Program-made: the position numbers and the translations under genes | In this document: piece by piece, positions 34,236-62,383 of the stretch | How the letters are laid out: the number at the start of each line of letters is the position of its first letter | Position numbering within the stretch: position 1 is the first letter of the stretch | Source: an uncultured Gemmatimonadaceae bacterium | GTDB taxonomy: Bacteria; Gemmatimonadota; Gemmatimonadetes; Gemmatimonadales; Gemmatimonadaceae | NCBI GenBank assembly: GCA_963751275.1 | Contig: CAVVTZ010000007.1 | Coordinates: 864,001-928,000 of the forward strand | Length of the DNA stretch: 64,000 nt | Direction: 5' to 3' | The notes under the pieces: model-generated | The model's input: only the letters and a program-made list of their open reading frames with translations | Databases searched by the model: none | Told to the model about the DNA's origin: nothing

Positions 34236-34315
34236 CAATCGTGTCAATCATGTTCATCCTGTCAAAGCAGTGCACCGGCAACTACTTTGACAGGATGAAC
34301 GTGATGGACATGATG
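34236..34315. repeat. 9-bp-periodic palindromic element, family copy 3
   Basis: caatcgtgtcaatcatgttcatcctgtcaaag ... ctttgacaggatgaacgtgatggacatgatg. Confidence 0.85.
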
Positions 34316-35088: not shown

Positions 35089-35190
35089 ATCCTGTCAATC
35101 CTGAAAATCCTGTCATCCTGTCAAAGCAGTGCCGTTCCCACTAACGACACTGCTTTGACAGGATGACAGGATTTTCAGGATTGACAGGAT
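35089..35190. repeat. 9-bp-periodic palindromic element, family copy 4 (perfect 43-bp inverted repeat)
   Basis: 35089-35131 is the exact reverse complement of 35148-35190. Confidence 0.9.
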
Positions 35191-36003: not shown

Positions 36004-36183
36004 CTGCCGGAGTAGGACGAGGCACTGGCACTACGAACGCCGTCGTTTGCGAGTAACGCCGTAGAGAGTGAGACTGGGGACTTGATGCGCCATTCGTCGT
36101 TCAAGTCCCCAGTTCGACATTCTACGGCGTTACTCGCAAACGACGCCGTATGTGGTGCCCGCACCGGGTCCTACTCTCGGCAG
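36004..36183. repeat. ~180-bp long imperfect hairpin
   Basis: Perfect 25-bp arm 36041-36065/36121-36145, inner 13-bp arm 36073-36085/36101-36113, outer arm 36004-36018/36168-36183. Confidence 0.85.
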
Positions 36184-36199
36184 TCGCGGATCGAGTGGC

Positions 36200-36226
36200 A
36201 TCGGTTCGATTCCGATAGGCTCCACC
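36200..36226 (+). other. tRNA-Ala-like 3' fragment (T-arm + acceptor 3' strand)
   Basis: ATCGG-TTCGATT-CCGAT T-arm followed by AGGCTCC-ACC; no 5' half found. Confidence 0.55.
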
Positions 36227-36395
36227 GAGGCGTTGCCAATCGCGGTGGAAGATTGTATCGTTGGAAACCGAAGGCAGTGTCGAGTCTCGCACACTCGGAT
36301 AAAGCATTGTTTTCGTCGCACACGGTGGAGCCCAAAGGGCCCGGAGGGCCGCCAGCAGCCGAGGCGGCCCTCGTTGCATCCGCCGCTCTCGTTCG

Positions 36396-36424
36396 TTGAC
36401 TGCGTGTATGAGCCCGGCTAACTT
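36396..36424 (+). promoter_or_regulatory. Sigma70-type promoter for tRNA-Ile
   Basis: TTGACT-17 bp-TAACTT ending 12 bp before the tRNA. Confidence 0.6.
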
Positions 36425-36436
36425 TGGTTGCTAACC

Positions 36437-36510
<74 letters not shown>

Positions 36511-36521
36511 TGGCACGGAAG

Positions 36522-36563
36522 ATCACGCCCCGCTTGAGCTTAAATGCTTGGGCGGGGCGATTC
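36522..36563 (+). terminator. GC-rich hairpin downstream of tRNA-Ile
   Basis: atcacgccccgcttgagc-ttaaat-gcttgggcggggcgattc; the same hairpin family follows the longer tRNA fragments. Confidence 0.7.
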
Positions 36564-36627
36564 ACATCGGCGGATTCCGACCGATGGTGTAAGTTCGTGG
36601 TGTACGCGACCGCACGCCCAGGGGAAG

Positions 36628-37686
36628 ATGAGCGCTCTCGATCTCACCATTGCGATCCACGAAGCGGGACACGCAGTAATCGGCATTCGGCGGGGCCTTC
36701 GGCTGCTCTTCATCAAACGCGACTGTGGCAGGGACGACCCCAATCCCTGCTGTGGGTGGGCGCCGCACAATAATCCCCTGGATGTCATCGACATGATGCT
36801 CGCCGGAGAGATCGCTGGAGATCGCCATCACCTCGAGTTCGGGGGCGACCCGCAAGGCGAGCCCGGCCTTCAGCGAGATCGCGATGACGTCGAGGCCCGA
36901 CTGGCAGAAGTTGCACCAGGCATTGAGCAGCGCGCGCTGCTTCGCAAAGCGCGAGCTGCTGTGGTACGGGAGGAGATTGGCTCGAGCGTCGTATGGGGCG
37001 CGATCGAGGAGATCTCCGCCGCTCAGCTTCGCGACGGCCTTCTCGCGGGTGGCACGGTCGCCGCGATCGTCGCGAACCGGGCGCCCTTCCGACCTGCCGA
37101 CGGTCGCTCGCGGACGGGCCGAGCCGCTGGCGAATCGGCGAGCGCACCAGAGGCCGCGGTTCCGCGACGCGCTGAGCTCACGATCGCCTATGAGGAGTGC
37201 AAGGTGGCGCTCCTGCCCCTCCTCCGCGAGCGCGTCTTTCACGTCACGGCGGCTTCGAATCTTGACGCGATCATTGCCTCCGGGTCCCTACTGGCGAATC
37301 CTCCCGATGGCTCGACAGGTCACTTCGGTCGCTACCTCCAGTCCTATGGCCGCACGCTCAATAAGGTTTCATTCTTCGACTATCGGGAGCGGACCGAGGA
37401 GGCACTCGAGGAATCGTTCACCAAGTGCTCTCCGTGGTCCGGACTCCATGCGTGCGATCATCGCATCGCGATTCTGTTCCTGTCGCGGGTTGAGTGGCAC
37501 GCTCTGGAGCGCTGGACGCGCGAAGCGATGATCGCGACGCGGTGGCTCCAGGCTGTGCCGTGGGTCGAGTCGTGGCACGCGAGTCCGGTCCCTCTCAACC
37601 ACATCGAGGAGATTCTCCTTGTCGCCGTCGCTGAACCGACCGACCCTTTTCTACAAGCAATGCTCAAGCGTTCGCGGCGATCGTAG
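36628..37686 (+). CDS. Hypothetical fusion: HEAGH (M41-like zincin) N-domain + ADP-ribosyltransferase-like C-domain
   Basis: IAIHEAGHAVIG...MMLAGEIA...DRDD, low-complexity linker, then RVFHVTAASNLDAIIASGSLL. Confidence 0.6.
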   Translation: MSALDLTIAIHEAGHAVIGIRRGLRLLFIKRDCGRDDPNPCCGWAPHNNPLDVIDMMLAGEIAGDRHHLEFGGDPQGEPGLQRDRDDVEARLAEVAPGIEQRALLRKARAAVVREEIGSSVVWGAIEEISAAQLRDGLLAGGTVAAIVANRAPFRPADGRSRTGRAAGESASAPEAAVPRRAELTIAYEECKVALLPLLRERVFHVTAASNLDAIIASGSLLANPPDGSTGHFGRYLQSYGRTLNKVSFFDYRERTEEALEESFTKCSPWSGLHACDHRIAILFLSRVEWHALERWTREAMIATRWLQAVPWVESWHASPVPLNHIEEILLVAVAEPTDPFLQAMLKRSRRS

Positions 37687-43424: not shown

Positions 43425-43648
43425 ATGCTGTCCGTTATGCTGCCCGTTCAGTGCGGCATTCTACGGCATGGAGGAAAGCAGAATCCGGCAGATCGCGCGA
43501 TTCATCAATGAGTTAACGGTTTCTTGCCGTCCTTTCGCGCCGTAAGTGCACTGCTGATAAGCGTGAGGTCCGAGGTTCAACTCCTCGCAGGCCCATGGAA
43601 GCGAAGATCACGCCCCGCTTCGACTTGACCGTCGGGGCGGGGCGATTC
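43425..43648 (+). repeat. Junction unit A: diverged arm + intact tRNA-Ile 3' half + hairpin
   Basis: 43554-43598 identical to 36469-36513 (45 bp); 12-bp tandem atgctgtccgtt/atgctgcccgtt at 43425-43448. Confidence 0.9.
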
Positions 43649-44991: not shown

Positions 44992-45417
44992 ATGGCTGGG
45001 TTGGCAGTCACCCTCTGGGCTGGCCTCCACACCGGCACTCTCCTGAGCAGCGGCACGCTCGCTCTGACTATCCCGTTCGGCCTTGTTGGTACGGCCGGCC
45101 GCTGGATGCTTCGAGGTCGAACGGGCGCCCGGCGACTCACCGCAGTTGCTCAGCTGCTGCAGATCCCGATCATTCTCTTACCACAGTTTTCTTGGAAGTT
45201 CATTGCCGGCGCTATTCTCTCGATCACGATGACTGAAGCGGAAACGCGCATGTATCTGGGCGTTGAGGCGACCTGGAGTGTTGGTCACCGTGTCCTAACG
45301 GTCGCACCAGCCGTTGGCCTGAACATTCTTCCTCTGATCGCGCTAGGCTGCCTCTTTCTTGTGAAGCCGCCGCCCACGATTCACGACGGGCTAACTTCCG
45401 TTTCAGCCGACCGCTGA
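44992..45417 (+). CDS. Membrane protein (start uncertain)
   Basis: Hydrophobic ORF with QLLQIP and VGLNILPL segments. Confidence 0.5.
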   Translation: MAGLAVTLWAGLHTGTLLSSGTLALTIPFGLVGTAGRWMLRGRTGARRLTAVAQLLQIPIILLPQFSWKFIAGAILSITMTEAETRMYLGVEATWSVGHRVLTVAPAVGLNILPLIALGCLFLVKPPPTIHDGLTSVSADR

Positions 45418-45630
45418 GCTATGGAGTGCGCGCGTCGCTTGCGCGATCGCATCGCCCGCAGCTGAGCGCACTTTGTCAGCTGACCTCTCGGGACCCTATC
45501 GAATGCCCATATCGCGGGACGCAACTTGACGTAGCCCCCGCAAACGGGACCAACTAGTCTGGGTTCTGCGATAGGTTGGTCGTGCAGGCTCGACGGATGA
45601 AGGTCCGTGACCGCCGTGACCGCCGTGACC

Positions 45631-45874
45631 GTGGTGTAAGTTGTGGTGTAAGTTGGACCCGGCATCCTGCCGAATCGAGGGCCCAAAGTCCGGGCAGATC
45701 GCGCGATCCGCTCTATGAAAGACGGCATCGTGCCGGACTTCGGCCTACTATAGAAAGGCCTGATAAGCGTGAGGTCCGAGGTGGAGCTTCGCTCTCCTGC
45801 GGATCAACTCCTCGCAGGCCCATACGTCCGAAGATCACGCCCCGCTCGAGCTTAGCGCTCGGGCGGGGCGTTTC
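45631..45874 (+). repeat. Junction unit B: arm repeats + tRNA-Ile 3' half with 21-nt insertion + hairpin
   Basis: gtggtgtaagtt x2 (45631-45654); tRNA fragment 45758-45822 with insertion 45783-45803. Confidence 0.92.
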
Positions 45875-45932
45875 GTTTCCGGCGTTGCCTATCTACCCGG
45901 TCTCTTCCATTGCGCAACAGTCATCCTGGGAG

Positions 45933-45961
45933 TTGCGAAGTGTATATGTCCATCGTATACT
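45933..45961 (+). promoter_or_regulatory. Promoter/operator of the TA operon (probably leaderless transcript)
   Basis: TTGCGA-17 bp-TATACT, 6 nt before the GTG start; overlapping GTATA-N9-TATAC inverted repeat. Confidence 0.65.
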
Positions 45962-45967
45962 TTAGCC

Positions 45968-46276
45968 GTGCCTGATCTGGACGAATTGCTCGCCGGAATG
46001 GAAGGATTCCAGTGGGACGCTGGCAACACGGACAAGAACGTGCTCGGCCACGATGTCACCCGATCGGAAGCCGAGGAGATGTTCTTTCACGCGCCGGTCG
46101 TCTTGCTCGAGGACGCCAAGCATTCCGTCGCCGAGTCGCGCTTCTTGATCTACGGCCCGACGAACGCCGGGCGCCTGCTGACAGCCGCGTTCGTCATAAG
46201 GGGTAAACGCATTCGAGTCATTTCGGTTCGCGACATGAGCCGCCAGGAGCGCCGCCGCTATGCCAAAACGCCATAA
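45968..46276 (+). CDS. brnT: BrnT family toxin
   Basis: FQWDAGNTDKNVLGHDV...EAEEMF...HSVAESRF...IRVISVRDMSRQERRRY. Confidence 0.9.
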   Translation: MPDLDELLAGMEGFQWDAGNTDKNVLGHDVTRSEAEEMFFHAPVVLLEDAKHSVAESRFLIYGPTNAGRLLTAAFVIRGKRIRVISVRDMSRQERRRYAKTP

Positions 46277-46577
46277 GAAGCTGAAGCCGATCCCGCATTT
46301 TCGCTCGGACGAAGAGGCCGGCAAGTTCTGGATGACGCACGACACGACGGCGTACGCGGACTGGAGCAAAGCACGCTTCGTCTCCTTCCCAAGCCTCCGG
46401 CCGTCGACGGCCACAATCTCGTTGCGGCTGCCTCAAAGCCTCCTCGATGAGCTTCGGACGCTGGCGAATCAACGCGATGTGCCGTATCAGTCGCTCCTCA
46501 AGGTCTATCTCGCGGAGCGCATCGCGCAGGAGCGCCGTCCCGTGCACCCGCGACGGCGTTCGCGCGCGAGCGCCTAG
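46260..46577 (+). CDS. brnA: BrnA/CopG-type antitoxin
   Basis: IPHFRSDEEAGKFWMTHD...TISLRLP...RDVPYQSLLKVYLAERI ribbon-helix-helix. Confidence 0.88.
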   Translation: MPKRHKKLKPIPHFRSDEEAGKFWMTHDTTAYADWSKARFVSFPSLRPSTATISLRLPQSLLDELRTLANQRDVPYQSLLKVYLAERIAQERRPVHPRRRSRASA

Positions 46578-46586
46578 CAGGCCCAT

Positions 46587-46940
46587 GCGCCTGTTCGTAC
46601 GCCGTCCGGCGCTCGCCACTACGCAATGGCGCTATCGATCATGGTCGGTGGTGGCATCGCCAATCTGCTGGATCTTCTCCTCCACGGCTCCGTGACGGAC
46701 TTCATCGTGCTTCGAGTCCTTGGATATCGATTTGGCATCTTCAACCTGGCCGACATTGCGATCGTGTTCGGGGGCCTGCTATTCCTGTTCCTGCGCATAC
46801 GTGACGGGATTCGGGAGGAGGGTTGGCGCAGGGCGCTCTTCTCATTCTCATTGTCGCCAGATGTGTTGCTTCTGCCTCCGTCCATGCGGCCGGCGAAGCG
46901 CCCAAGCACGCCTCCTCCGACCAGCGGTCCCGGGCGATAG
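46587..46940 (+). pseudogene. lspA: N-terminally truncated lipoprotein signal peptidase II fragment
   Basis: GGGIANLLD...GSVTDFI...GIFNLADIAI motifs; the N-terminal half is missing. Confidence 0.7.
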
Positions 46941-47004
46941 GTAATGAGTGGCGATCCATCGGCCTGGATCGAGAGGCCGGAACGCCGGGTGTCGTAGGGC
47001 CGCC

Positions 47005-47249
47005 GCGGTGTAAGTCGCGGTGTGAGTTCAACCCGGCATCCTGCTGTGTCTCGAGTCCGAAGTCCGGGCAGATCGCGCGATCCGCTCTATGAAACACGGC
47101 ATCGTGCCGGACTTCGACCTACTGTAGAATGGCCTGATAAGCGTGAGGTCCGAGGTGGAGCTTCGCTCTCCTGCGGATCAACTCCTCGCAGGCCCATTCG
47201 AGTGAAGACTGCGCCCCGCTTCGACTCAACCGTCGAGGCGGGGCGTTTC
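47005..47249 (+). repeat. Junction unit C
   Basis: gcggtgtaagtc/gcggtgtgagtt; tRNA fragment 47132-47196 with the same insertion at 47157-47177; hairpin. Confidence 0.92.
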
Positions 47250-47324
47250 GTTATGAGGACTCGGGCCGAGTGTCGCTCAGGTCTGGCCTGCTAAGAACCG
47301 TTCACCCGTCGGCCGCAACGACGG

Positions 47325-47489
47325 TTAGGCAGCTGCTCGGATGCGCAGCGCGAGGACGACAAACAGAGCACCGGATGCGAACAACCCCAGGGCACGCAGG
47401 AGATGTCCCGACGAAACGGCGAGTGCGGCAACCACCGCGAATGCTACTGCAACAACATAGGCCAACCACAACTGTGCGTTCTTGCCCAT
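47325..47489 (-). CDS. 54-aa membrane protein
   Basis: Manual translation MGKNAQLWLAYVVAVAFAVVAALAVSSGHLLRALGLFASGALFVVLALRIRAAA; GGAG RBS; stop lies within GCCTAAC. Confidence 0.55.
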   Translation of the reverse strand: MGKNAQLWLAYVVAVAFAVVAALAVSSGHLLRALGLFASGALFVVLALRIRAAA

Positions 47490-47818
47490 AGTCGTACTCC
47501 TGCGCTCGGAGTCTGTCTATCGCGGATGATGCGGCGCTCGGCACGTGGGCGCAAGGAAGATCTCTCTGACTCGAGGGGAAATCGTTAGCTGATGGAGGTG
47601 AGCGGCGGAACGACGGTGATCGGCGTGACCGCCGTTCTCACGGTCCATGTGCGGCTTCAGCGGGGTGCCCCGGAGCGTGTGCAAGCCGCGAGGTGCGATT
47701 CGTCTCCCTGCTGGGTGACTCTGGTCCGAGCCACGCCGCCGTCCGCGAGCCACCCCGCGCGGCAGAATACGGGAGATGCCGCGGGCGTTGCGACGTCGAT
47801 CGAGCCTCGGGTGGCATT

Positions 47819-48481
47819 GTGAGCGCCGAGTCCGCCCTTGACGCTCGCGGGAGCGCACGGATTTCGACCCTCGAACTGTTCGGCCTGCTGTGCGCGGCTA
47901 CACTCGCGATGGCATTCTACACCAACGAGGTGGTCCTCACTCGCGACGCATACCACTCGATGCTGGGCGGTCAACTGGATGCGAGTCGCATTGATGTCCT
48001 CTACCAGCTCACCCGCAAGATGCAGGTCCTCGGATATGTGCTCGCGCCGCTCTTCCTGGCGCTCCAGCTTTGGTTCCTGGCGTTCGTCGTACAGTTGTGC
48101 GCCCTCCTCTTCGGGAATGAAGTCGCGTTGGGCGCGATGTTCCGGCTCAGTGTCGTCGCGCGTTTCGCGATCCTCGCTGACACGGCCGCGCGCTCCTTCT
48201 GGCTCGGCACGATGCCGGCGTCGAGCGTGACCAAAGAGATGCTGAGTGTCGTGCCCTGGTCGTTCGCCGGGCTCTTCATGCGACCGGAGGATGCGCTCAG
48301 CCCTTCCTATGCGTTCGCCGCGGCGATCAATCCTGCGGAGCTCGCTTGGTGCTTGATCATGGTCGTCGGCCTGGCGCGGGGCGCCAAGATGACGATGGCG
48401 CGATCCGCGGCCGTCGTCGGTGGAATCTGGCTCGCCGCGCAGCTCATGAGCTACGTTCTGAGATCGTTCCTGACGCCATAG
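47819..48481 (+). CDS. Yip1-like multi-pass membrane protein (start uncertain)
   Basis: Five hydrophobic segments; upstream of an ABC ATPase/permease pair. Confidence 0.6.
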   Translation: MSAESALDARGSARISTLELFGLLCAATLAMAFYTNEVVLTRDAYHSMLGGQLDASRIDVLYQLTRKMQVLGYVLAPLFLALQLWFLAFVVQLCALLFGNEVALGAMFRLSVVARFAILADTAARSFWLGTMPASSVTKEMLSVVPWSFAGLFMRPEDALSPSYAFAAAINPAELAWCLIMVVGLARGAKMTMARSAAVVGGIWLAAQLMSYVLRSFLTP

Positions 48482-48539
48482 CATGCGCCGCACTGTCGCG
48501 CGGGCCGTTGAATCCATCTATGCTGAGGCTCGTTGAATC

Positions 48540-49253
48540 ATGATCGTCGTTTCCGGACTTGAGAAACGCTATCGGAACGTCCACGCGCTCCGAGGCGTCT
48601 CCTTCGAGGTGCCGCAAGGGGCGATCGTCGGACTCCTTGGACGGAACGGCGCGGGGAAGACCACCACGCTGCAATGCATTGCCGGCATCACGCGACCGGA
48701 CCAGGGAACGATCGTGATCGCCGGCCAGCGACTTGACGAGGCGCCGATCGAAGCCAGGCGCCGGCTGGCATTCATTCCCGACGAGCCGGAGTTCTTCGAC
48801 TATCTCACCGTGGACGAGCACATGGGCTTCTTCCGCCAGCTATACCCTGACGCGGAGGTGATCGACCCTGACCCGCTGTCCACCTTCGGCCTCGAGGAGA
48901 AGCGGGGGGCATTCCCCGATGAGTTGTCCCGCGGCATGAGGCAGAAGCTGGCCATGGCGTGCACGCTCTGGAGGCGGGCGGACGCCGTGCTGCTGGATGA
49001 ACCGCTCACGGGCCTCGACCCTTCCGGCATTGCGGAGGCGAAGCGTCTCGTGCGAGCGCTGGCCGCACAGGGCTCGGCGGTCCTGCTGAGCTCACATCTG
49101 CTGCATCTCGTGCGGGAACTCTGCTCGCGCATAGTCGTGATCGAACGCGGGGCGATCGTTGCCGACCAGGCGATCGCCAACGCAGCTGGCGCTGCCGGCG
49201 ACGAGCTCGAGCGGTTCTTCTCTCCGACTCTCCGCGAAGCGTCCGATTCGTGA
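48540..49253 (+). CDS. ABC transporter ATP-binding protein
   Basis: GRNGAGKTT, LSRGMRQK, LLDEPLTGLD, SSHLL. Confidence 0.93.
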   Translation: MIVVSGLEKRYRNVHALRGVSFEVPQGAIVGLLGRNGAGKTTTLQCIAGITRPDQGTIVIAGQRLDEAPIEARRRLAFIPDEPEFFDYLTVDEHMGFFRQLYPDAEVIDPDPLSTFGLEEKRGAFPDELSRGMRQKLAMACTLWRRADAVLLDEPLTGLDPSGIAEAKRLVRALAAQGSAVLLSSHLLHLVRELCSRIVVIERGAIVADQAIANAAGAAGDELERFFSPTLREASDS

Positions 49254-50911
49254 CGGTGCCTCTCCGCTTCTTCGCGCTTCGTTCCTTCCGGAATGCAGCG
49301 GCCCGCCAGATCCGCACACCGCGCGGCGCCGCAGCGGTCGTGATCGGCGCGGTGTACGCGGGCTGGATGCTCCTCGGCCAGCGTCCTCTCCTGACGATCG
49401 TCGATGCAGCGTGGGTCGGCCGCATCGGGGCTGCCGCGGCGTTCCTCGCTTCGGGCATGGCATGGTGGCAAGGATCACGGCGCATCGCGTTACGCGCACC
49501 GGAGCGCCAGTGGCTCGCGACCGCGCCGATCACCAGCGGACGGGTCCTCAGCTTTCATGCACTGGGACGCGTGCCGACGCTGCTGCTCAGCGCCGGCGTT
49601 CTCGCGGTAATCCTGAGGGCACCCACAATATTTGGCACCCTCTACCGTGGCGCGGCGATCGTCGTGGTCCTCGGGGTCGTCGAGGCGCACCAGCTGATCG
49701 CTGCCGTCGTGGCGGAACGAGTTGATCGAGGCATACGGCGCGCCGCGACCCTTCGCTGGTTCGTGCGAGTCGGTTACTGCGGGCTGGCCCTGGCCGCAAT
49801 CGCTGTCGGCGTGGCGGCGCTGTTCGCGGTGCAGGATCTGGCGGCGCGCGCTGCGTTCCGCGCGTGGGCACAGCGGGTGGCCGACAACGACGTGTGGTTC
49901 GCTTTCGGTCCCTTCACGGTGCTGGCGCGCGGCGTACTCGAGGATGGCGGCGGCGAACGCATGCGGGCGCTGGGAACGGCCATCCTGCTGCTCGCGGTCG
50001 AGCTGGCCTGGCTCGCTCGGGCGGGCATTGCGTGGCCGGAGCAGGCCGCGGAGACTCGCAGGGCCGGCAATGGGCGGCGAATGTTTCGCCGTGCGCCGCC
50101 TTCGTTGTTTCCGGGCAGGCTACTGCGGGGGTCCGAGTTCGCGTTCGCCTGGAAGAACATGCTCACGGCACCTCGAACGCAGCGGCTGGCGCCGCAGCTT
50201 GCCCTGTGCGTCGCCGTGCCGCTGTTGCTGTGGTTGACGGCGACTCCGATCTTTCACCGTTTCACAGAGTTCGCGTTCGGGCTCTCCTCCGTGTGGGGAC
50301 TGACGCTGATCGCCGCCGGACCGATGCTGATCCGCAACGATCTGCGCATGGATCTTCCACGGCTCCGGCTGCTCAAGTCACTACCGTTGCGTTCGAGGAG
50401 ACTCTTGATGGCCGAGAGTCTTCCGGCCGCCATCCTCCTATGGTGCTTCCAGCTCGTACTCGTTTCGCTGGCGTGGGTCGCGCTCGCGCCGAACCCAGTC
50501 ATGGCCGGGGTTGGCGCCCTTGGCTGGCCGATCGTGATCGCCACGATCATTGCGCTGGCAGGGGTCAATCTCGCAGTGGTGCTCTGTCACACGCTCGTGG
50601 CGCTGTGGCTCCCTTCGCTCTCCCTGCTCGGTGTGGCACGTTCCTCGAGGATCCGGGGAGGTGGGCAGTACTACCTGTTGCTCACGGCTGCCCTGGTGCA
50701 GTTCGCGATCATCATGCTCCTGCCCGCCCTGGTGGGGCTCATCGCGTTCGGCGCCACGCAGGCATCGTGGGGCAGGGCGCCGGCGGCCATTCTCGCGGGA
50801 GCCGCGATAGGCATGGTGGCACTGGCCGAAGCCATGGTGTTGGTCGCACTGGGAGGGCGTGCGTTCGAGAGATTGAATGTGTCGGAAGTACCTCGCTCGG
50901 CGACCGGATGA
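49250..50911 (+). CDS. Putative ABC exporter permease
   Basis: 553 aa polytopic protein, coupled to the ATPase (GTGA); AWKN and RNDLRMDL..L.LLKSLP motifs. Confidence 0.8.
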   Translation: MTVPLRFFALRSFRNAAARQIRTPRGAAAVVIGAVYAGWMLLGQRPLLTIVDAAWVGRIGAAAAFLASGMAWWQGSRRIALRAPERQWLATAPITSGRVLSFHALGRVPTLLLSAGVLAVILRAPTIFGTLYRGAAIVVVLGVVEAHQLIAAVVAERVDRGIRRAATLRWFVRVGYCGLALAAIAVGVAALFAVQDLAARAAFRAWAQRVADNDVWFAFGPFTVLARGVLEDGGGERMRALGTAILLLAVELAWLARAGIAWPEQAAETRRAGNGRRMFRRAPPSLFPGRLLRGSEFAFAWKNMLTAPRTQRLAPQLALCVAVPLLLWLTATPIFHRFTEFAFGLSSVWGLTLIAAGPMLIRNDLRMDLPRLRLLKSLPLRSRRLLMAESLPAAILLWCFQLVLVSLAWVALAPNPVMAGVGALGWPIVIATIIALAGVNLAVVLCHTLVALWLPSLSLLGVARSSRIRGGGQYYLLLTAALVQFAIIMLLPALVGLIAFGATQASWGRAPAAILAGAAIGMVALAEAMVLVALGGRAFERLNVSEVPRSATG

Positions 50912-51050
50912 CCTCGGGGGCAAGGCTCGTGAAGCAACGCCCGTACCAGACTAATCACCTTCATTCCGTCAGAGACACGGAGTTCGTCACGGCGAAGCAG
51001 GGTGTTAAGTCGCGGCCCGGGCGCGCGTGAGACGGAGCGCGCGACTCTTC

Positions 51051-51293
51051 GCGGTGTAAGTTGTGGCGTAAGTTCGACCCAGCTTCCTGCTGTTTCTATG
51101 GGTCGAAATCCGGGCAGATCGCGCAATCCGCTCTATGAAACACGGCATAGTCCCGGAACTCGGCCTACTATAGAAAGGCCTGATAAGCGTGAGGTCCGAG
51201 GTGGAGCTTCGCTCTCCTGCGGATCAACTCCTCGCGGGCCCATATCGATCAAGATCACGCCCCGCTTGAGGCAGCCTGCACAAGCGGGGCGTT
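51051..51293 (+). repeat. Junction unit D
   Basis: gcggtgtaagtt/gtggcgtaagtt; tRNA fragment 51178-51242 with the same insertion at 51203-51223; hairpin. Confidence 0.92.
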
Positions 51294-51472
51294 GTCGAAT
51301 CCACGCGACGTGAACCTCGCCGAGCACGCGCGCAGCGCCAGGCTTACCCCTACATAACGCCAGCGAATGCGACCACAGTCGCGTGACCTGACGTGCGCTA
51401 TCCTGAGTGCATGATTCGCATCACGTCCGCCGACTGCACCGGCGCCACCGCCGCCGATTCGCGGAGATCGGC

Positions 51473-52537
51473 GTGAGCACCGGCGCCGTTGCGCTCGGCC
51501 CGGCCCCGACGGCTGTACCGTCGTTACCGAAGTGGCTCGCCGGCGTGTCCGGCGCCATCGCGCTCTGGGTCGTCGTGTATTGGCAATTGGAACCGCTCTC
51601 GCACTGGATCACCCTGCAGCTCGGCCTCGAACGCGGCACCCACCTCGAGGAGGCGGTGCGATTCTTCGCCTTTGATGCGCCGAAGGTGTTGATGCTGCTG
51701 ACCCTCGTCGTGTTCGCGATGGGGGTCGTGCGCACGTACTTTTCGCCCGAGCGGACCCGGGCGCTGTTGGCCGGGAAGGCCGAGGGCGTCGGCAACATCG
51801 CGGCGGCCGGACTCGGCATCTTCACCCCGTTCTGCTCCTGCTCCGCGGTGCCGCTCTTCGTGGGATTCGTTTCCGCCGGGATCCCGCTCGGAGTCACCTT
51901 CTCCTTCCTGATCGCGGCGCCGATGATCAACGAGGTGGCGCTCGGTCTCCTCTTCGCCCTGCTCGGCTGGCAGACCGCGCTCACCTACCTCTTCTTCGGC
52001 CTCGCGGTCGCCATCGTCGCCGGCTGGGTCATCGGCCGTCTGCACCTGGAAGGCTGGCTCGAGGAGTGGGTGCGTGGCGTTCGCGCCGTGGATGCCGCGG
52101 TGCCGACGGAACAGTTCACCTTCGTCGGCCGACTGAAGGCAGGCCTCTCCTCCATTCGCGAGATCGTCGAAAAGGTCTGGATGTGGATCATCGGCGGGAT
52201 CGCGGTCGGGGCCTTCATCCACGGCTATGTGCCCGCTGAACTCCTGGCGACGATCATGGGCAAGGGATCATGGTGGTCGGTGCCGGCGGCCGTGCTCGTC
52301 GGCATCCCAATGTATTCCAACGCCGCGGGCATCATCCCGATCGTCGAAGCGCTCCTCGGCAAGGGCGCAGCGCTGGGGACGGTGCTCGCCTTCATGATGT
52401 CGGTGATCGCGCTGTCGCTCCCCGAGATGATCATCCTGCGCAAGGTGCTGAGCGGCAAGCTGATCGCGGTCTTCATCGCGGTGGTCGCCGCCGGCATTCT
52501 GGCGGTGGGATTCCTGTTCAACTTCCTGTTCACTTAG
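51473..52537 (+). CDS. DUF318/ArsP-family permease
   Basis: TPFCSCSAVP, FLIAAPMINEV, GIPMYSN, MSVIALSLPE motifs; GGAG RBS before GTG. Confidence 0.88.
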   Translation: MSTGAVALGPAPTAVPSLPKWLAGVSGAIALWVVVYWQLEPLSHWITLQLGLERGTHLEEAVRFFAFDAPKVLMLLTLVVFAMGVVRTYFSPERTRALLAGKAEGVGNIAAAGLGIFTPFCSCSAVPLFVGFVSAGIPLGVTFSFLIAAPMINEVALGLLFALLGWQTALTYLFFGLAVAIVAGWVIGRLHLEGWLEEWVRGVRAVDAAVPTEQFTFVGRLKAGLSSIREIVEKVWMWIIGGIAVGAFIHGYVPAELLATIMGKGSWWSVPAAVLVGIPMYSNAAGIIPIVEALLGKGAALGTVLAFMMSVIALSLPEMIILRKVLSGKLIAVFIAVVAAGILAVGFLFNFLFT

Positions 52538-52553
52538 CGCGAGGCAACGGATC

Positions 52554-52793
52554 ATGAAGGACTTCAAGATCCTTGGACCCGGATGTTCCAATTGCAAGAC
52601 CACGACGGCCCTCATCGAGACCGTCGCCCGGGAGAAAGGTGTGGAGATCCGTCTCACCAAAGTGGTGGAGATGGAGGACATCATGTCCTATGGCATCATG
52701 TCCACTCCGGGCGTGGTGCTGGACGAGCGCGTCGTTCACGCGGGCGGTGTACCGAGCCGAGCCAAGATCGAGGGTTGGTTCGCCGGAGCGTGA
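52554..52793 (+). CDS. Small redox-active disulfide (thioredoxin-like) protein
   Basis: KILGPGCSNC and YGIMSTPGVVLD; a usual partner of ArsP-like permeases. Confidence 0.88.
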   Translation: MKDFKILGPGCSNCKTTTALIETVAREKGVEIRLTKVVEMEDIMSYGIMSTPGVVLDERVVHAGGVPSRAKIEGWFAGA

Positions 52794-52803
52794 GGTCCGA
52801 GGT
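52787..52803 (+). repeat. 17-bp tRNA-Ile fragment
   Basis: agcgtgaggtccgaggt exactly matches tRNA positions 36475-36491. Confidence 0.7.
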
Positions 52804-53128
52804 CGCCCCCCGACCCCGGAACCCATCACCGATCGTCCCGGAACGGGGGCACCCTCAAGTGCGGAATCGCATGCTCACACCTCCGCATCGATATCCGATA
52901 GGCTCTTGCAGGGTACTACGAAATCGAAGGCGAAAGAAACTGTACGGCGGCGATCAAGTACTCGCACGCCCATTCAAGTGCAGGTGATGCCGCGCCTCGA
53001 CCACACGGTCCCGGCGGGGCGCTCGTTCGAAGCGCCTTCGCCCTTGGCCACGGCACTCCGCATCGGCTAGCTTCCAAGCCGCTGTTCACCTGCCGAATCA
53101 TCACTCGCGAACGTCGGAGCAAGAATCC

Positions 53129-54607
53129 ATGAGCGTCACCCTGCGCCGGATCTCCTCGTTGGTCATCATGAGTGCCGCCTCGATGACTCTCATCGCGGGC
53201 TGCAGCAAGAAGGACGACGCGATCTCCCAGGCCGCGAAGAACGACGCAGCCAAGGGCGTGTCCGCGCCGGGCATCGAGCAGACCAAGGCGATCGCCGAGG
53301 AAGGGTTCGTCTACGGACTGCCGCTCGTCATGAACTACGCGGTGATGTACGAGTTCGCGGTGGACAGCACCTCGAGCCAGTTCAAGGCGCCCTTCAACCA
53401 GATCAACAACCAGCACCGCGTGGCGACCTACCTCGACTCGGCGGTCATCACGCCGAACAGCGACACGCCGTATTCCATGTTGTGGCTGGATCTGCGCGCG
53501 GAGCCGATGGTGATCACGGTGCCGGCGGTGCCGAAGCCGCGCTACTACTCGGTGCAGTTGATCGACGGGAACACCTACAATGACGGCTACATCGGCAGCC
53601 GCACCACCGGCACCGAGGCCGGGAGTTATCTCGTCGCCGGTCCCGGCTGGACGGGCAAGACTCCCGCCGGCATCAAGAAGGTGTTCACGTCGACGACTCC
53701 CTTCATGCTCACGCTCTTCCGCACGCAGCTGTTCGACCCGGCCGACATGCCGAACGTCGAGAAGGTGCAGGCCGGCTATAGCGCGCAGCCGCTGTCGGCG
53801 TTCCTCAAGCAGCCCGCGCCGCCCGCGGCGCCCAAGATCGATTTCCTCCCGGCCACCACGGCCGGGATCAAAGCGAATTTCTACGAGTACCTCTCGTTCG
53901 CGCTGCAGTTCGTTCCGCCCACCGCGCAGGACAGCGGGATCCGCGCGCGGCTCGCGAGCATCGGCGTCGGGCCGGGCAAGACGTTCGAGTTCAAGGACCT
54001 GTCGGTCGAGCACAAAGCCGCGGTGCTGCTCGGCATGAAGGCGGGCGACGACCAGGTGGACAAGTTCCTCGCCAGCGGGAACAAGAACATCAACGGCTGG
54101 AACGTCGGCGCGTTCTTCGGAGACAGCGCGTTCTTCAAGGGCCGCTGGCTCATGCGGGCCGCGGCGGCCAAGGGCGGACTCTACGGGAATGACGCCGAGG
54201 AGGCGATGTATCCGTACACGCGCACGGATGGGAAGGGTGAAACGTTGGACGGCAGCAAGCACAACTACACGATCACGTTCGCGAAAGGGCAGCTCCCGCC
54301 GGTGAACGCGTTCTGGTCGGTGACGATGTACGATGGCAAGAGCCAGCTGCTGATCAAGAACCCGCTCGACCGGTATCTGATCAACTCGCCGATGCTGTCC
54401 GCCATGAAGAAGGGCGCCGACGGCTCGGTCACGCTCTACATCCAGAAGGATTCGCCGGGCAAGTCACTCGAGTCCAACTGGCTGCCCGCGCCGAACGACG
54501 TGATCTACATGGTCCTTCGCCTCTACTGGCCGAAGACCACGGCGCCGTCCATCCTGCCGCCCGGCGACGGAACGTGGAAGCCGCCGGCCATCACAGTGTC
54601 GAAATAG
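53129..54607 (+). CDS. DUF1254/DUF1214 lipoprotein
   Basis: Lipobox IAGC; YGLPLV, TPNSDTPYS, LPPVNAFWSVTMYD, NWLPAP, LRLYWP. Confidence 0.9.
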   Translation: MSVTLRRISSLVIMSAASMTLIAGCSKKDDAISQAAKNDAAKGVSAPGIEQTKAIAEEGFVYGLPLVMNYAVMYEFAVDSTSSQFKAPFNQINNQHRVATYLDSAVITPNSDTPYSMLWLDLRAEPMVITVPAVPKPRYYSVQLIDGNTYNDGYIGSRTTGTEAGSYLVAGPGWTGKTPAGIKKVFTSTTPFMLTLFRTQLFDPADMPNVEKVQAGYSAQPLSAFLKQPAPPAAPKIDFLPATTAGIKANFYEYLSFALQFVPPTAQDSGIRARLASIGVGPGKTFEFKDLSVEHKAAVLLGMKAGDDQVDKFLASGNKNINGWNVGAFFGDSAFFKGRWLMRAAAAKGGLYGNDAEEAMYPYTRTDGKGETLDGSKHNYTITFAKGQLPPVNAFWSVTMYDGKSQLLIKNPLDRYLINSPMLSAMKKGADGSVTLYIQKDSPGKSLESNWLPAPNDVIYMVLRLYWPKTTAPSILPPGDGTWKPPAITVSK

Positions 54608-54692
54608 CGAGGCCCGATCATGCGCAAACTCATTGCACTCGCCGCGCTGGGTGTTTCGCTCGCCCGCGCGTCTCGCCGCGGATGTGATGCGC

Positions 54693-57386
54693 TCACGGCT
54701 TGGCCTTCGCCTTCAGCGCCTGGGTCCAGTTCTCGGTGACGATCAGCTCCACTCCCTCCGCCGCGCCGCCCGTCTCGCGCAGCATCAGGAAGCGGCGGTC
54801 ATCCGGCGCCACTGAGTACATCGTCCGGGAACCCGATGCCACGTAGGGCGCCGCATTGAATAGCGCGCGTTGCTGAGCGGCGCTGAACACCGGGCTCGTC
54901 ACGACCGCTGCGGCGACGAACATTCCCTTCCCATTCCTGAAATACAGCTCTCCACCGCTGTGCGACCAGGCGGGCTCGCTCCCGCCGGCAACCGAGACCT
55001 GCCAGCGCGCCTTCGCGGCGTCGGGGAAGGGGCGCACATACACCTCTTTCGCGCCGGTCTCGTTCGAGACGTAGGCGAGCCACCTGCCGTCGGGGGAGAC
55101 CGCCGGCGAGGTCTCCCGCGCCGGACTCGCGACGAGCGGCGCGAGCGCGCTATCCCCCTCCTTCACGCCGAAGATATCTCCATTCCCCGGTTCAAGGGTC
55201 TGCCGCCGCGCGACGTACCATTTCCCGGCCGGTGATTCCTCAATCTCGGAAAAGGTCCAGGACGACGGGAAGAGCGGTCGCGCCGCACTCGCGCCATCGG
55301 CGCTCTTCGACATGGGGACGCCGCCCAAGTTGCCGCGATCCGACACGTACAGCACCGCGCGGCCATCCGCGGACCAACTCGGATGCAGGCTCGAAGTGTC
55401 GCCGAGCGTGAGACGGGAGAACGGTCCGCCAGGGATCCGCTTCACCCAAATGTCGGTGTGCGGTGGCTGCTCGAGCTCCACGGCGATCGCCTTGCCGTCG
55501 GGAGACAGCGCCGCGCCGATGACGTTTCCCTCCGCGCGCCACGTGGAGTCCACCGGTGTGCTCTTGCCCTCGCGGCTCACCCAGTCGATCTCCCGCCCGA
55601 CGGGCTTGGCCAGCCGCTGGAAGACGAGGGTGCCCGAATTGGAGAGCGCGATGCCCGACGAATAGATGGCCGTCTCCAGTCCGTCGTAGAGCACGACCGG
55701 CGCACCGGTGAGCGCGAGCGAGCGTTCGCTGAAGGGGACGGCGAGGAGCTTCCCGTCCGCGGTGACGACGAGGAGGTGGCCGCTCGGGGAGTAGCGCGCG
55801 TAAATGCCGCGGATCAGTTGACGCGGCTCACCAGCGGGGCGGGGGATCACCACGATCTGCTCATCGCCCGGTCCGCCCCCCTGGTAGCGGATGCGGACGA
55901 TCACGCCGCGGCCCCCCGGCAACAGACTCGCGAATTCCACGCCGACCTCACGGCGCGCACTCGAGATCATGTAGAAGCGGTCGATCTTCCCGCCGCCGCT
56001 GGGGATGCGCGCGAGGCCCGAGTCGGTCTCGAAGTAGATGAAGCCGTCGGTACCCCAGGAGGCGGCCGTGGTCGCGGCACTGTCGGTGAGGATGCGCGGC
56101 GCGGTCCCGTCCAGCGGCACCACTCGGATGCTCCGCCCCTCCTTCACGTACGCGAGCTGCTTTCCGTCGGGCGAGAAGAAGGGCTCCGCCATCCCCTCGG
56201 TGCCGGGGATCGGTTCGGGGCGTGCCCTGTCCCGCTCCTTCACGAAGAGACGGATCGTGCCCTCTCCCTTGCCCACATAGACGATGCGCCCGCCATGCGG
56301 GGAGATCGCGAGGAGCGACAGGAGCAGGTTCGGTCCTCCGGGCTGGAACGCCGCCTCAGCGGGGAGGGCGAGACTGTACTGCGTGAGCGGCGGCGGCGCA
56401 CCGCCGCGCAGCCATCCCCACGCCGCCGCCACGGCGAAGATGATCGTCGCCGCGCCGAGGATCGCGGCGAGCCGGCCGCCGCGCAGGCGTGCGGCCGGCG
56501 TGAAGGAGGGGATCGCCATCGTCGCACCCGCGGGATCGACCGCCGGTGCGCCGATGGCGCGAATGAACGTGTCGGCGCTGTTGAAGCGATCCGCGGGCAG
56601 CTTGGCGAGCGCGCGATGCACCGCCGCGGCGATCTGCGGGGGCACCGTGGGCCGCCGCGATGAGAGCGGCTCGGGCGCTCGCGTCACCACGGCGGCGATC
56701 ACGGCTTGCATCGTCGCGCCGGTGTGCGGCGGCGAGCCGGCGATCATTTCATAGACGAGCGTGCCCAGCGAGTAGACATCCGAGCGCGCGTCGAGTTTCC
56801 GCTCGCCCGTCGCCTGTTCCGGGCTCATGTAGTCCGGCGTGCCGACGGACATGCCCGTCCCGGTCATCCGGCCCCGGTCGGCTGAACTCACCGCCAGCGC
56901 GATCCCGAAGTCCGCCACCAGCGCCTGGCCGTCGTGCAGCAGGATGTTCTCAGGCTTGATGTCGCGGTGGATCACGCCGTGCCGGTGCGCGTAATCGAGG
57001 GCGGAACCGACCTCCGTCGCGATGCGCACGACGTCTTCGATCGGGAGCTGCGTCTCGCGCTGGAGGCGCGTGCGCAGGCTCTCCCCTTCGACGAGCGGCA
57101 TCACATAGTAGAGGAACGAATCCACCTGCCCTGAATCGAAGAGCGGGAGAATGTGCGGGTGCTGCAGCGCGGCGGTGGTCTTGATCTCGGCGAGGAATCG
57201 TTCGGCGCCGATCACGGCCGCGAGCTCAGGCCGCAACACCTTGAGCGCGACCTTCCGGTCGTGGCGAAGGTCATGGGCCACGTACACGGTCGCCATCCCT
57301 CCCTCGCCGAGCACGCCCTCGATGCGGTAGCGGTCGGCGATCGCCGCGGCGAGGCGCGCGGGCGGCGTTTCAGGCGAGTCGGTCAC
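54693..57386 (-). CDS. Hanks-type Ser/Thr kinase with TM helix and TolB/PD40 beta-propeller
   Basis: LGEGGMATVY, VALK, HRDIKPEN, DFG, GTPDYMSPE; repeated SPDG motifs. Confidence 0.93.
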   Translation of the reverse strand: MTDSPETPPARLAAAIADRYRIEGVLGEGGMATVYVAHDLRHDRKVALKVLRPELAAVIGAERFLAEIKTTAALQHPHILPLFDSGQVDSFLYYVMPLVEGESLRTRLQRETQLPIEDVVRIATEVGSALDYAHRHGVIHRDIKPENILLHDGQALVADFGIALAVSSADRGRMTGTGMSVGTPDYMSPEQATGERKLDARSDVYSLGTLVYEMIAGSPPHTGATMQAVIAAVVTRAPEPLSSRRPTVPPQIAAAVHRALAKLPADRFNSADTFIRAIGAPAVDPAGATMAIPSFTPAARLRGGRLAAILGAATIIFAVAAAWGWLRGGAPPPLTQYSLALPAEAAFQPGGPNLLLSLLAISPHGGRIVYVGKGEGTIRLFVKERDRARPEPIPGTEGMAEPFFSPDGKQLAYVKEGRSIRVVPLDGTAPRILTDSAATTAASWGTDGFIYFETDSGLARIPSGGGKIDRFYMISSARREVGVEFASLLPGGRGVIVRIRYQGGGPGDEQIVVIPRPAGEPRQLIRGIYARYSPSGHLLVVTADGKLLAVPFSERSLALTGAPVVLYDGLETAIYSSGIALSNSGTLVFQRLAKPVGREIDWVSREGKSTPVDSTWRAEGNVIGAALSPDGKAIAVELEQPPHTDIWVKRIPGGPFSRLTLGDTSSLHPSWSADGRAVLYVSDRGNLGGVPMSKSADGASAARPLFPSSWTFSEIEESPAGKWYVARRQTLEPGNGDIFGVKEGDSALAPLVASPARETSPAVSPDGRWLAYVSNETGAKEVYVRPFPDAAKARWQVSVAGGSEPAWSHSGGELYFRNGKGMFVAAAVVTSPVFSAAQQRALFNAAPYVASGSRTMYSVAPDDRRFLMLRETGGAAEGVELIVTENWTQALKAKAKP

Positions 57387-57424
57387 GCGGGCAAGTTGCA
57401 GGTGATGTACGGGAGTAGCAAGCG

Positions 57425-57513
57425 CCCTGACGCCCGAGGTGGAGCTCCGCGCTGGTACGGTTCAACTCAAAGGCCACGCCCCGCCCGAGCTTCGCGCTCG
57501 GGCGGGGCGTTGC
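57425..57513 (+). repeat. Degenerate distal junction unit
   Basis: ccgaggt-[ggagctccgcgctggtacggt]-tcaactc followed by cacgccccgcccgagc-ttcgc-gctcgggcggggcg. Confidence 0.75.
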
Positions 57514-57535
57514 GTTCGTGTGGCTCCGGCGCCGC

Positions 57536-61720: not shown

Positions 61721-62383
61721 CTAGTACCACTTGGCGTTGAACTGATGACAGTAGTGGTTCGGGTCAGCGCGCAGCCACTCCTGCTTGGTCATCCAGGAGT
61801 ACGCCTCACACTCCTCCTTGAGCTGCTGCTTCTGCTGCTTCACCTCGGTCTTCAACGCCTTCTGCCACTCCTTCGCAAATGCGACGGATGGGAATCGATA
61901 CACCCCCTCCCACACGTGCCCATGGGCGAGTAGGTCGAAGGCGGCGGTGAGTTGGGCATCCTGTCCCTTGATGTTCCATTTCAGGCCGCCCTTCGAGATG
62001 TCGCCCGCGTAGCTCCACTGCCACGCGTCGCCCGACTTCACGACCAGCATGCATTGGAATCCGCTGTTCGGCCGCGCGTTGTCGTACTGTCCCGACCAGA
62101 CCCAAGAGCCGTTCCGGCTGATGGTCAGCTCCGCCGACCCGCCCCCGTTCTTGAACTCCCAGTGGATGATGATCTGCCCGTTCTTGCCGATCCCGCGCTG
62201 GATCCCCGTGTTCTCCTCGACCGGAGCCTCGACCGTCTGCTCGGTCTGAAGGGCCGGAATGGGCTGGCTGCTATCCGCCGCGTGCTTCTTCTTCCCCCCT
62301 CCTTGCGCACTCAATGGATTCGCCAGCGCGACGACGAGCAGGCAGACGCAGGCGACCGCAATCGGTGAGTTCCGCATCGTCAT
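61721..62383 (-). CDS. Secreted hypothetical protein
   Basis: GGGAG RBS, signal peptide, Trp/Gly-rich beta domain with a C-terminal Cys pair. Confidence 0.65.
   Translation of the reverse strand: MTMRNSPIAVACVCLLVVALANPLSAQGGGKKKHAADSSQPIPALQTEQTVEAPVEENTGIQRGIGKNGQIIIHWEFKNGGGSAELTISRNGSWVWSGQYDNARPNSGFQCMLVVKSGDAWQWSYAGDISKGGLKWNIKGQDAQLTAAFDLLAHGHVWEGVYRFPSVAFAKEWQKALKTEVKQQKQQLKEECEAYSWMTKQEWLRADPNHYCHQFNAKWY

Follow-up and report, generated by a model that had tools for sequence, protein, structure and literature searches.

How does a sequence of only 21 nucleotides come to interrupt several displaced fragments of a tRNA gene at one and the same position of the T-loop? The question arises from a 64,000-nucleotide stretch (the window) of contig CAVVTZ010000007.1, in an assembly from an uncultured Gemmatimonadaceae bacterium (3.1 Mb, 83% complete; G000 among the genomes compared), where an intact tRNA-Ile gene is followed by a row of its own 3′ halves. 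A sequence-only reading of the window had seen a paradox here, in that serial integration requires each fragment to have once restored a functional tRNA, which the insert would prevent, and had offered either a tiny site-specific element or the spread of whole junctions as units. What we find is a real, recurrent, T-loop-specific insertion of mini-hairpins atop an ordinary island array.

Between CCGAGGT and TCAACTC, fragments B, C and D each hold GGAGCTTCGCTCTCCTGCGGA (45783–45803, 47157–47177 and 51203–51223), as that reading had reported, and a different 21-mer, GGAGCTCCGCGCTGGTACGGT, occupies the equivalent position of fragment E (57441–57461). We take the junction to be T54|T55 in standard tRNA numbering. 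The GGAGCTTCGCTCTCCTGCGGA 21-mer matches the genome at exactly three places at ≤3 mismatches, namely B, C and D. The gene, its fragments and the insert copies are arranged as follows.

36437..36510, + strand: intact tRNA-Ile(GAT) gene, the array target, without insert (ARAGORN; the sole one called in the assembly)
43554..43595, + strand: fragment A, displaced 3′ half from the anticodon loop on, same as the gene, without insert
45758..45822, + strand: fragment B, tRNA-Ile 3′ half, interrupted by the insert
45783..45803, + strand: insert copy B, 21-nucleotide twin mini-hairpin at the T54/T55 junction
47132..47196, + strand: fragment C, interrupted by the insert
47157..47177, + strand: insert copy C, 21 nucleotides, same as copy B
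51178..51242, + strand: fragment D, interrupted by the insert, with one substitution in the acceptor strand
51203..51223, + strand: insert copy D, 21 nucleotides, same as copy B
52787..52803, + strand: short fragment stopping at T54, followed by an unrelated small hairpin
57434..57468, + strand: fragment E, degenerate and outermost, acceptor strand lost
57441..57461, + strand: insert copy E, diverged 21 nucleotides, 15/21 positions as in copy B, both mini-stems damaged

Fragments A to E and the 52787 piece all lie downstream of the gene in the gene's own orientation. Fragment A, closest to the gene, is likely the youngest, and E is likely the oldest fragment of the array. The 52787 piece had been said to break off exactly at the insert site, and it does end after GAGGT (52803); this is nonetheless weak evidence, because related fragments end at other positions (L042; sequencing run X6 at 47145). 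The stop codon of a small open reading frame that follows an ArsP permease (52553–52792) falls within the same piece.

The GAGC-TTC-GCTC mini-hairpin recognised by the sequence-only reading is the predicted DNA fold of the insert, which holds a second mini-hairpin, TCC-TGC-GGA. Read on the opposite strand, each of the two has a GNA loop, and GA borders the second on both sides; GNA loops and GA flanks are motifs that stabilise DNA hairpins. From their letters we read these motifs as putative DNA hairpins on the non-transcribed strand. Pairing of the insert's CCTGCG with the acceptor strand CGCAGG, which had also been proposed, is possible by eye, but predicted folds pair the stretch with the variable loop and T-stem instead. 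Target duplication is absent from B, C and D, as that reading had claimed; for E this is less secure, since the copy ends in GGT and is readable as an 18-mer plus a 3-nucleotide repeat. The only other GGT-ending copy is at locus L237, and target-site duplication, seen in these two copies only, was rejected as a general feature.

Conserved island-end arms of 125 bases precede fragments B, C and D.

45633..45757, + strand: arm preceding fragment B, conserved, opening with paired GGTGTAAGT repeats
47007..47131, + strand: arm preceding fragment C, conserved
51053..51177, + strand: arm preceding fragment D, conserved

The paired GGTGTAAGT repeats are likely integrase arm sites. Pairwise identity, by which the short junction units were compared, is 82–86% among the three arms (86% for B versus C) and 71–74% among the 55 bases downstream of the fragments, yet the inserts are identical. 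A homologous unit in a genus mate, G405, lacks the insert; its arm has 84–91% identity to those of B, C and D overall, and is closer to B and C (90–91%) than B is to C. Contigs of sequencing runs X2 and X8 bridge a copy C-type insert junction and a 64-nucleotide piece in X6 covers one, these runs coming from three other studies and the X8 insert having a different first base, while a contig of run X3 has a B-type junction without insert. Run X5 yielded no contig, and no RNA run is among the sequencing runs listed as matching. Since identical inserts lie in flanks only 71–86% alike, the junction recurs in three other studies and the family is found in 19 other genomes, local duplication and assembly artefact were both rejected. 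A search for the motif in other tRNA fragments of relatives, as proposed with the sequence-only reading, found it at the same position in other genomes and in several tRNAs, and the inserts therefore do not all descend from one local duplication.

Whole-genome searches, confined to the host's phylum, used patterns derived from the insert. Under a strict script (one chance match in the window removed), 29 distinct loci have at T54|T55 an insert of the form N-GAGC...TNC-stem; three belong to this window and 26 to 19 other genomes, from 13 genera. Their inserts measure 21, 34, 37–38, 41–44 or 51 nucleotides and lie, by best match, in pieces of tRNA-Ile, Val, Met, Phe, Leu and Arg(CCT); further hosts, read by eye, are Pro, Arg(CCG), Ser, Lys and Asn pieces. 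The strict loci include eight 21-mers, every one of them in an Ile piece; the 21-mers at L104 and L105 differ from GGAGCTTCGCTCTCCTGCGGA by one base and occur in Ile pieces whose T-stem is different. The 3′-junction pattern matched 51 places in 33 of 301 genomes, as against seven for its reversed control; by eye, 39 of the 51 are tRNA T-loops, eight are chance matches in coding sequence and four are unclear. A two-module pattern gave six non-self matches in 400 genomes, three of them at T54|T55. Within the host's own family the 3′ pattern gave six matches in 110 genomes, two of them real, and two of the 29 matches of a metagenome scan were real. There were no matches to the 3′ pattern in 111 genomes of family f7, to the 21-mer 5′ pattern in 250 of the host's own family, or in viral contigs in two scans. 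A first search of the phylum found ten non-self places in nine of 400 genomes, none an insert; a scan of the genome collection for tRNA-Ile T-loop inserts, with a pattern too strict for L104 and L105, returned a single ordinary tRNA; and, of 82 plasmid records, the 10 listed showed only matches to tRNA anticodon arms.

The same insert occurs in T-arms that otherwise differ. G680 holds near-identical 34-mers in the T-stems GGGTG/CACCC and GCGCG/CGCGC, G162 holds 38-mers in Met and Phe pieces, and six inserts in G699 share one ending. The flanks common to these targets are only GT before the insert and TCRA.T after it, so few bases that ordinary homologous recombination would not act on them. 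Outside the array, G691 has the insert in a Leu-type tRNA-like gene whose orthologue in G059 lacks it. This long-arm gene (L143 and L227 in G691, L231 in G059) has the anticodon CGC, and the sequence next to its end is complementary to its anticodon arm; the empty G059 copy has a changed T-loop.

On balance, and with slightly more confidence than doubt, we take the 21-mer to belong to a gene-less family of twin mini-hairpins, spread through the host's order, that would be written into tRNA pieces after displacement, by a single-strand process acting in trans, and that would then bar excision. Position, family, empty and filled homologues, the recurrence of one insert in different tRNA T-arms and the covariation of the stems are established here, and the order of events, the single-strand chemistry and the ratchet are inferred. 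The proposed order is as follows. By crossover in the anticodon loop, each new island would push the previous 3′ half downstream; the displaced piece could then gain its insert at T54|T55 without cost, through a single-strand, hairpin-guided insertion supplied in trans; and excision via a filled fragment would leave the sole tRNA-Ile with an interrupted T-loop, and would hence be barred, making the insert a ratchet. An insert that arrives after displacement needs no working tRNA, so that the paradox is likely only apparent, as the empty homologue in G405 also suggests. The pattern of the array fits this order, the gene and its nearest fragment A being empty, B, C and D filled alike and the outermost E decayed. 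In a hybrid of the gene's 5′ half and fragment B the T-arm refolds, and ARAGORN, its threshold lowered, returns nothing better than a distorted T-stem. The insert may plausibly lock neighbouring cassettes.

The counts, the movement of some whole junctions, inserts in full-length genes and the enzymology all hold points that weigh against this reading. The constant ends of the family are partly circular because the patterns derive from the insert, and many loci are kin (eight from one genus), so that the counts overstate independent events. The 5′-junction pattern matched 16 places in 15 of 331 genomes compared with about 21 for the reversed control; it is not above that control, and its matches, 10 of the 16 being tRNA pieces, are therefore supported by context only.

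The spread of junctions as units, the second suggestion of the sequence-only reading, does occur: L146 and L163, from two genera, share the arm, an altered T-stem and a near-identical insert. Recurring site-specific insertion might then be dispensed with altogether, if an insert of rare origin had spread only as a passenger, copied from one tandem fragment to another by gene conversion and moved by composite islands that contain inner junctions. Besides that shared junction, the identity of the inserts in B, C and D within differing arms and downstream flanks is what such spread would produce, and so is the recurrence of the arm–fragment–insert junction in runs X2, X6 and X8, where different sequence follows it. 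It sits poorly, however, with near-identical inserts in the T-arms of different tRNAs (G680, G162, G699) and with a non-array gene that is empty in one genome and filled in its orthologue, and we consider it unlikely as a full account. The identity of B, C and D could reflect either repeated use of one donor or conversion among them.

Full-length tRNA-like genes with inserts number two, L123 and L143. The first belongs to G614 (90% complete, 370 contigs), whose only assembled tRNA-Ser(TGA) carries a 77-nucleotide T-loop insert (L123/L224), contrary to any rule that only fragments are filled. Removal of the insert gives a tRNA that ARAGORN calls, and the fixed position of the family would likewise suit a small intron, or a T-arm extension tolerated by working tRNAs, in which case filled halves could restore the gene. 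Yet pieces make up 28 of the 29 strict loci, and the one that differs is the odd Leu-type L143 with its CGC anticodon; the G614 gene is followed by arm-like repeats, and the genus mate G333 has an intact Ser(TGA). There is no Rfam intron match between 30000 and 60000 of the window and, by eye, no bulge-helix-bulge at the junctions; moreover, 21 nucleotides are too short for self-splicing, and the T-arm refolds in the hybrid described above. We regard an intron or tolerated extension as very improbable.

In the last mini-stem of the inserts the outer pair, left free in the search pattern, is paired at 26 of 29 loci (15 G-C, 8 T-A, 3 C-G), against a mean of 11.6 and a maximum of 21 in 2000 shuffles, although kinship among the loci inflates this covariation count. 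The middle loop base is variable. Of 22 long matches, one of them a chance match, 19 have extra sequence, by eye frequently a perfect hairpin, nested between GAGC-T and TY-GCTC, and the nesting point has the T^TC context of the T-loop itself. Next to the insert, the 5′ arm of the T-stem has changed from GA to TC in four Ile pieces of three genomes (L092, L105, L126, L159). Stems kept by compensatory change are consistent with an insert that is a selected part of the junction, such as a single-strand recombination or priming signal, of elements that integrate at inner junctions rather than at the gene. The GA-to-TC change, by which two pairs would become a tandem G.A motif when read on the opposite strand, points the same way, as does the tie of the family to island junctions rather than dispersed sites (four of four genome-wide module matches in G680, and five of six in G699, are T-loop inserts). 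Covariation can, however, reflect the inserting mechanism rather than selection; equivalent junctions are empty in fragment A and in G405, G069, G407, G328 and G417; and inserts occur in full-length genes and, at L092, L145 and L150, in short tandem duplications that directly follow genes. Selection at inner junctions seems to us decidedly unlikely.

The inserts at L062 and L237 are readable as two tandem family units; in L062 the inner unit is enclosed by a perfect inverted repeat of 12 bases. An integron-integrase cassette was considered and rejected: the genome has IntI and starts of the TGAGC type read GTTRRRY, but only one of the 29 strict copies, and E, restore G-TT at the end. Imperfect palindromes that look attC-like by eye lie in the cargo at 45390–45485 and 47288–47335, and an integron integrase lies at the end of contig C9.

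The array beneath the inserts is of a familiar kind, with an intact tRNA gene and downstream, co-oriented 3′ fragments that bound variable DNA. The backbone common to three genus mates resumes at 57529, which defines 36511–57528 as the variable array. Two further features lie near fragment B.

45839..45869, + strand: GC hairpin 3′ of fragment B, terminator-like in sequence (predicted function)
45968..46940, + strand: cargo between B and C, a BrnT/CopG toxin–antitoxin pair and a signal peptidase II piece (Pfam)

Variants of the terminator-like hairpin also lie 3′ of the gene and of fragments A, C, D and E. No integrase was found among the 23 open reading frames scanned in the array region, and the three PF00589 matches in the genome, one an integron integrase, all lie outside the array. 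In relatives with related arms (G069, G407) a PF00589 tyrosine integrase adjoins tRNA-Ile. Upstream of the gene, an imperfect inverted repeat of about 175 bases (36007–36182), REPIN- or MITE-like by eye, is present in genus mate G402 also, and 36202–36228 holds another T-arm-like stretch, which lacks an insert and has an acceptor-like end. The latter is probably the source of an ARAGORN call of a permuted tmRNA at 36132–36628, rejected as spurious; a normal tmRNA is on contig C11. Related palindromes at 34237–34315 and 35103–35176, with sub-threshold Rfam matches only, lie between two paralogous secreted-protein genes.

Which enzyme might write the inserts? At L094 (G129), a tRNA-Val piece is split at the T-loop position by 771 nucleotides that contain a 99-amino-acid GIY-YIG gene (PF01541, E 1e-13) and hairpin repeats. 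The left end of this cassette has GGAGCTCACTC after three extra bases and the right end is the family's last mini-stem, the two ends resembling two halves of the 21-mer. This cassette may represent the complete element, or it may have entered a pre-existing insert later. Repeats beside the Ssn-like genes of the order have the same GC-GNA-GC and CC-GNA-GG loops as the inserts. On this one locus and the shared hairpin motifs, the leading candidate is an Ssn-like GIY-YIG nuclease together with host repair, which we put forward tentatively. The fuller proposition, of a 21-base mobile DNA that would sense the universal tRNA T-loop on single-stranded DNA, be placed in trans by such a nuclease, grow by re-targeting its own TTC loop and ratchet islands at essential tRNA genes, we hold to be rather doubtful. 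Ssn-like genes are present in four of ten insert-bearing genomes probed (host included) and absent from the host genome itself, at its 83% completeness; none lies within about 1.5 kb of 48 further loci, and one flanked by hairpins was found at one of 12 loci scanned (L094). The available text on Ssn nucleases with NTS/SRM hairpin repeats (Chenal et al. 2025, PMC11893778) describes cleavage and no joining or insertion step.

The sequence-only reading had offered, as one of its two suggestions, a tiny, T-loop-specific element like the repetitive extragenic palindromic (REP) sequences, mobilised by an HUH enzyme. Its core, hairpin insertion specific to the T-loop and recurring at the same position in other genomes and tRNAs, is borne out; the assignment to HUH/RAYT is not. 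No Y1 transposase was found in the host genome, in G699 or in G594, all of them incomplete, and G699, with its six inserts, has GIY-YIG only as long frames. In G680, G630 and G023 Y1 genes do exist, at loci that contain no tRNA gene and show no link to the inserts; among the genomes probed, no enzyme tracks the inserts. A GTAG foot is present in two of 29 loci: G53-T54 with the first two inserted bases reads GTAG in 2, GTGG in 13 and GTTG in 14, half of the motif being target. As for dispersed REP-like copies, G000 has three matches at ≤3 mismatches, its other module matches are not T-loops, and module counts in five genomes are mostly at or below the reversed control.

Literature searches aimed at such T-loop inserts, and one on the phylum, listed no description of them; the supplements of PMC11893778 may include loci adjacent to tRNAs. 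How short palindromic repeats enter genomes is an open question, and REP dissemination is called poorly understood in the abstract of PMC8266576. In the present family the target (T54|T55) is fixed and universal, empty and filled sites occur naturally in pairs, the minimal form has 21 bases and one candidate nuclease cassette sits at that very position, all of which makes a direct insertion assay possible. The ratchet, if true, would explain the pile-up of integrase-less island arrays at a sole tRNA gene. Island-finding programs take such fragments as endpoints, and the inserts interrupt these fragments.

Among known systems, the array resembles tRNA islands of the Islander type, as far as the available portions of PMC4383910 and PMC9897764 describe them, in its intact gene, co-oriented 3′ fragments from the anticodon loop, conserved arms and variable cargo; it differs in having no integrase among the open reading frames scanned, integrases being at the site in relatives. 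The fragment damage named in those portions is a small deletion near the discriminator; the term T-loop is absent from both papers, and no T-loop insert is described in those portions. With the Ssn/SRM system (PMC11893778, in the portion available) the inserts share short hairpins read on one DNA strand and the one Ssn-like cassette at the equivalent T-loop position of L094. The published SRM pattern, by contrast, matches neither the inserts nor the repeats of the order: as a search sequence, possibly too narrow, it matched the window once, at 62378, and nowhere at the inserts or around the order's 11 Ssn-like genes. The word tRNA is absent from the main text of that paper, and Ssn mobility is left there as a hypothesis. 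The REP/TnpA-REP system, on the available text of Corneloup et al. 2021 (PMC8266576), has in common with the inserts short, gene-less, hairpin-forming units, no target duplication and nested mosaic growth, whereas the inserts are confined to tRNA T-loops, are neither dispersed nor high-copy, and occur in a host genome without Y1. TnpA-REP is described as cleaving and transferring strands at CT or CA on single-stranded DNA, and the insert junction is T|T on the + strand and A|A on the − strand. In design, then, the inserts resemble both REP and SRM hairpins, but on the features compared they do not qualify as either.

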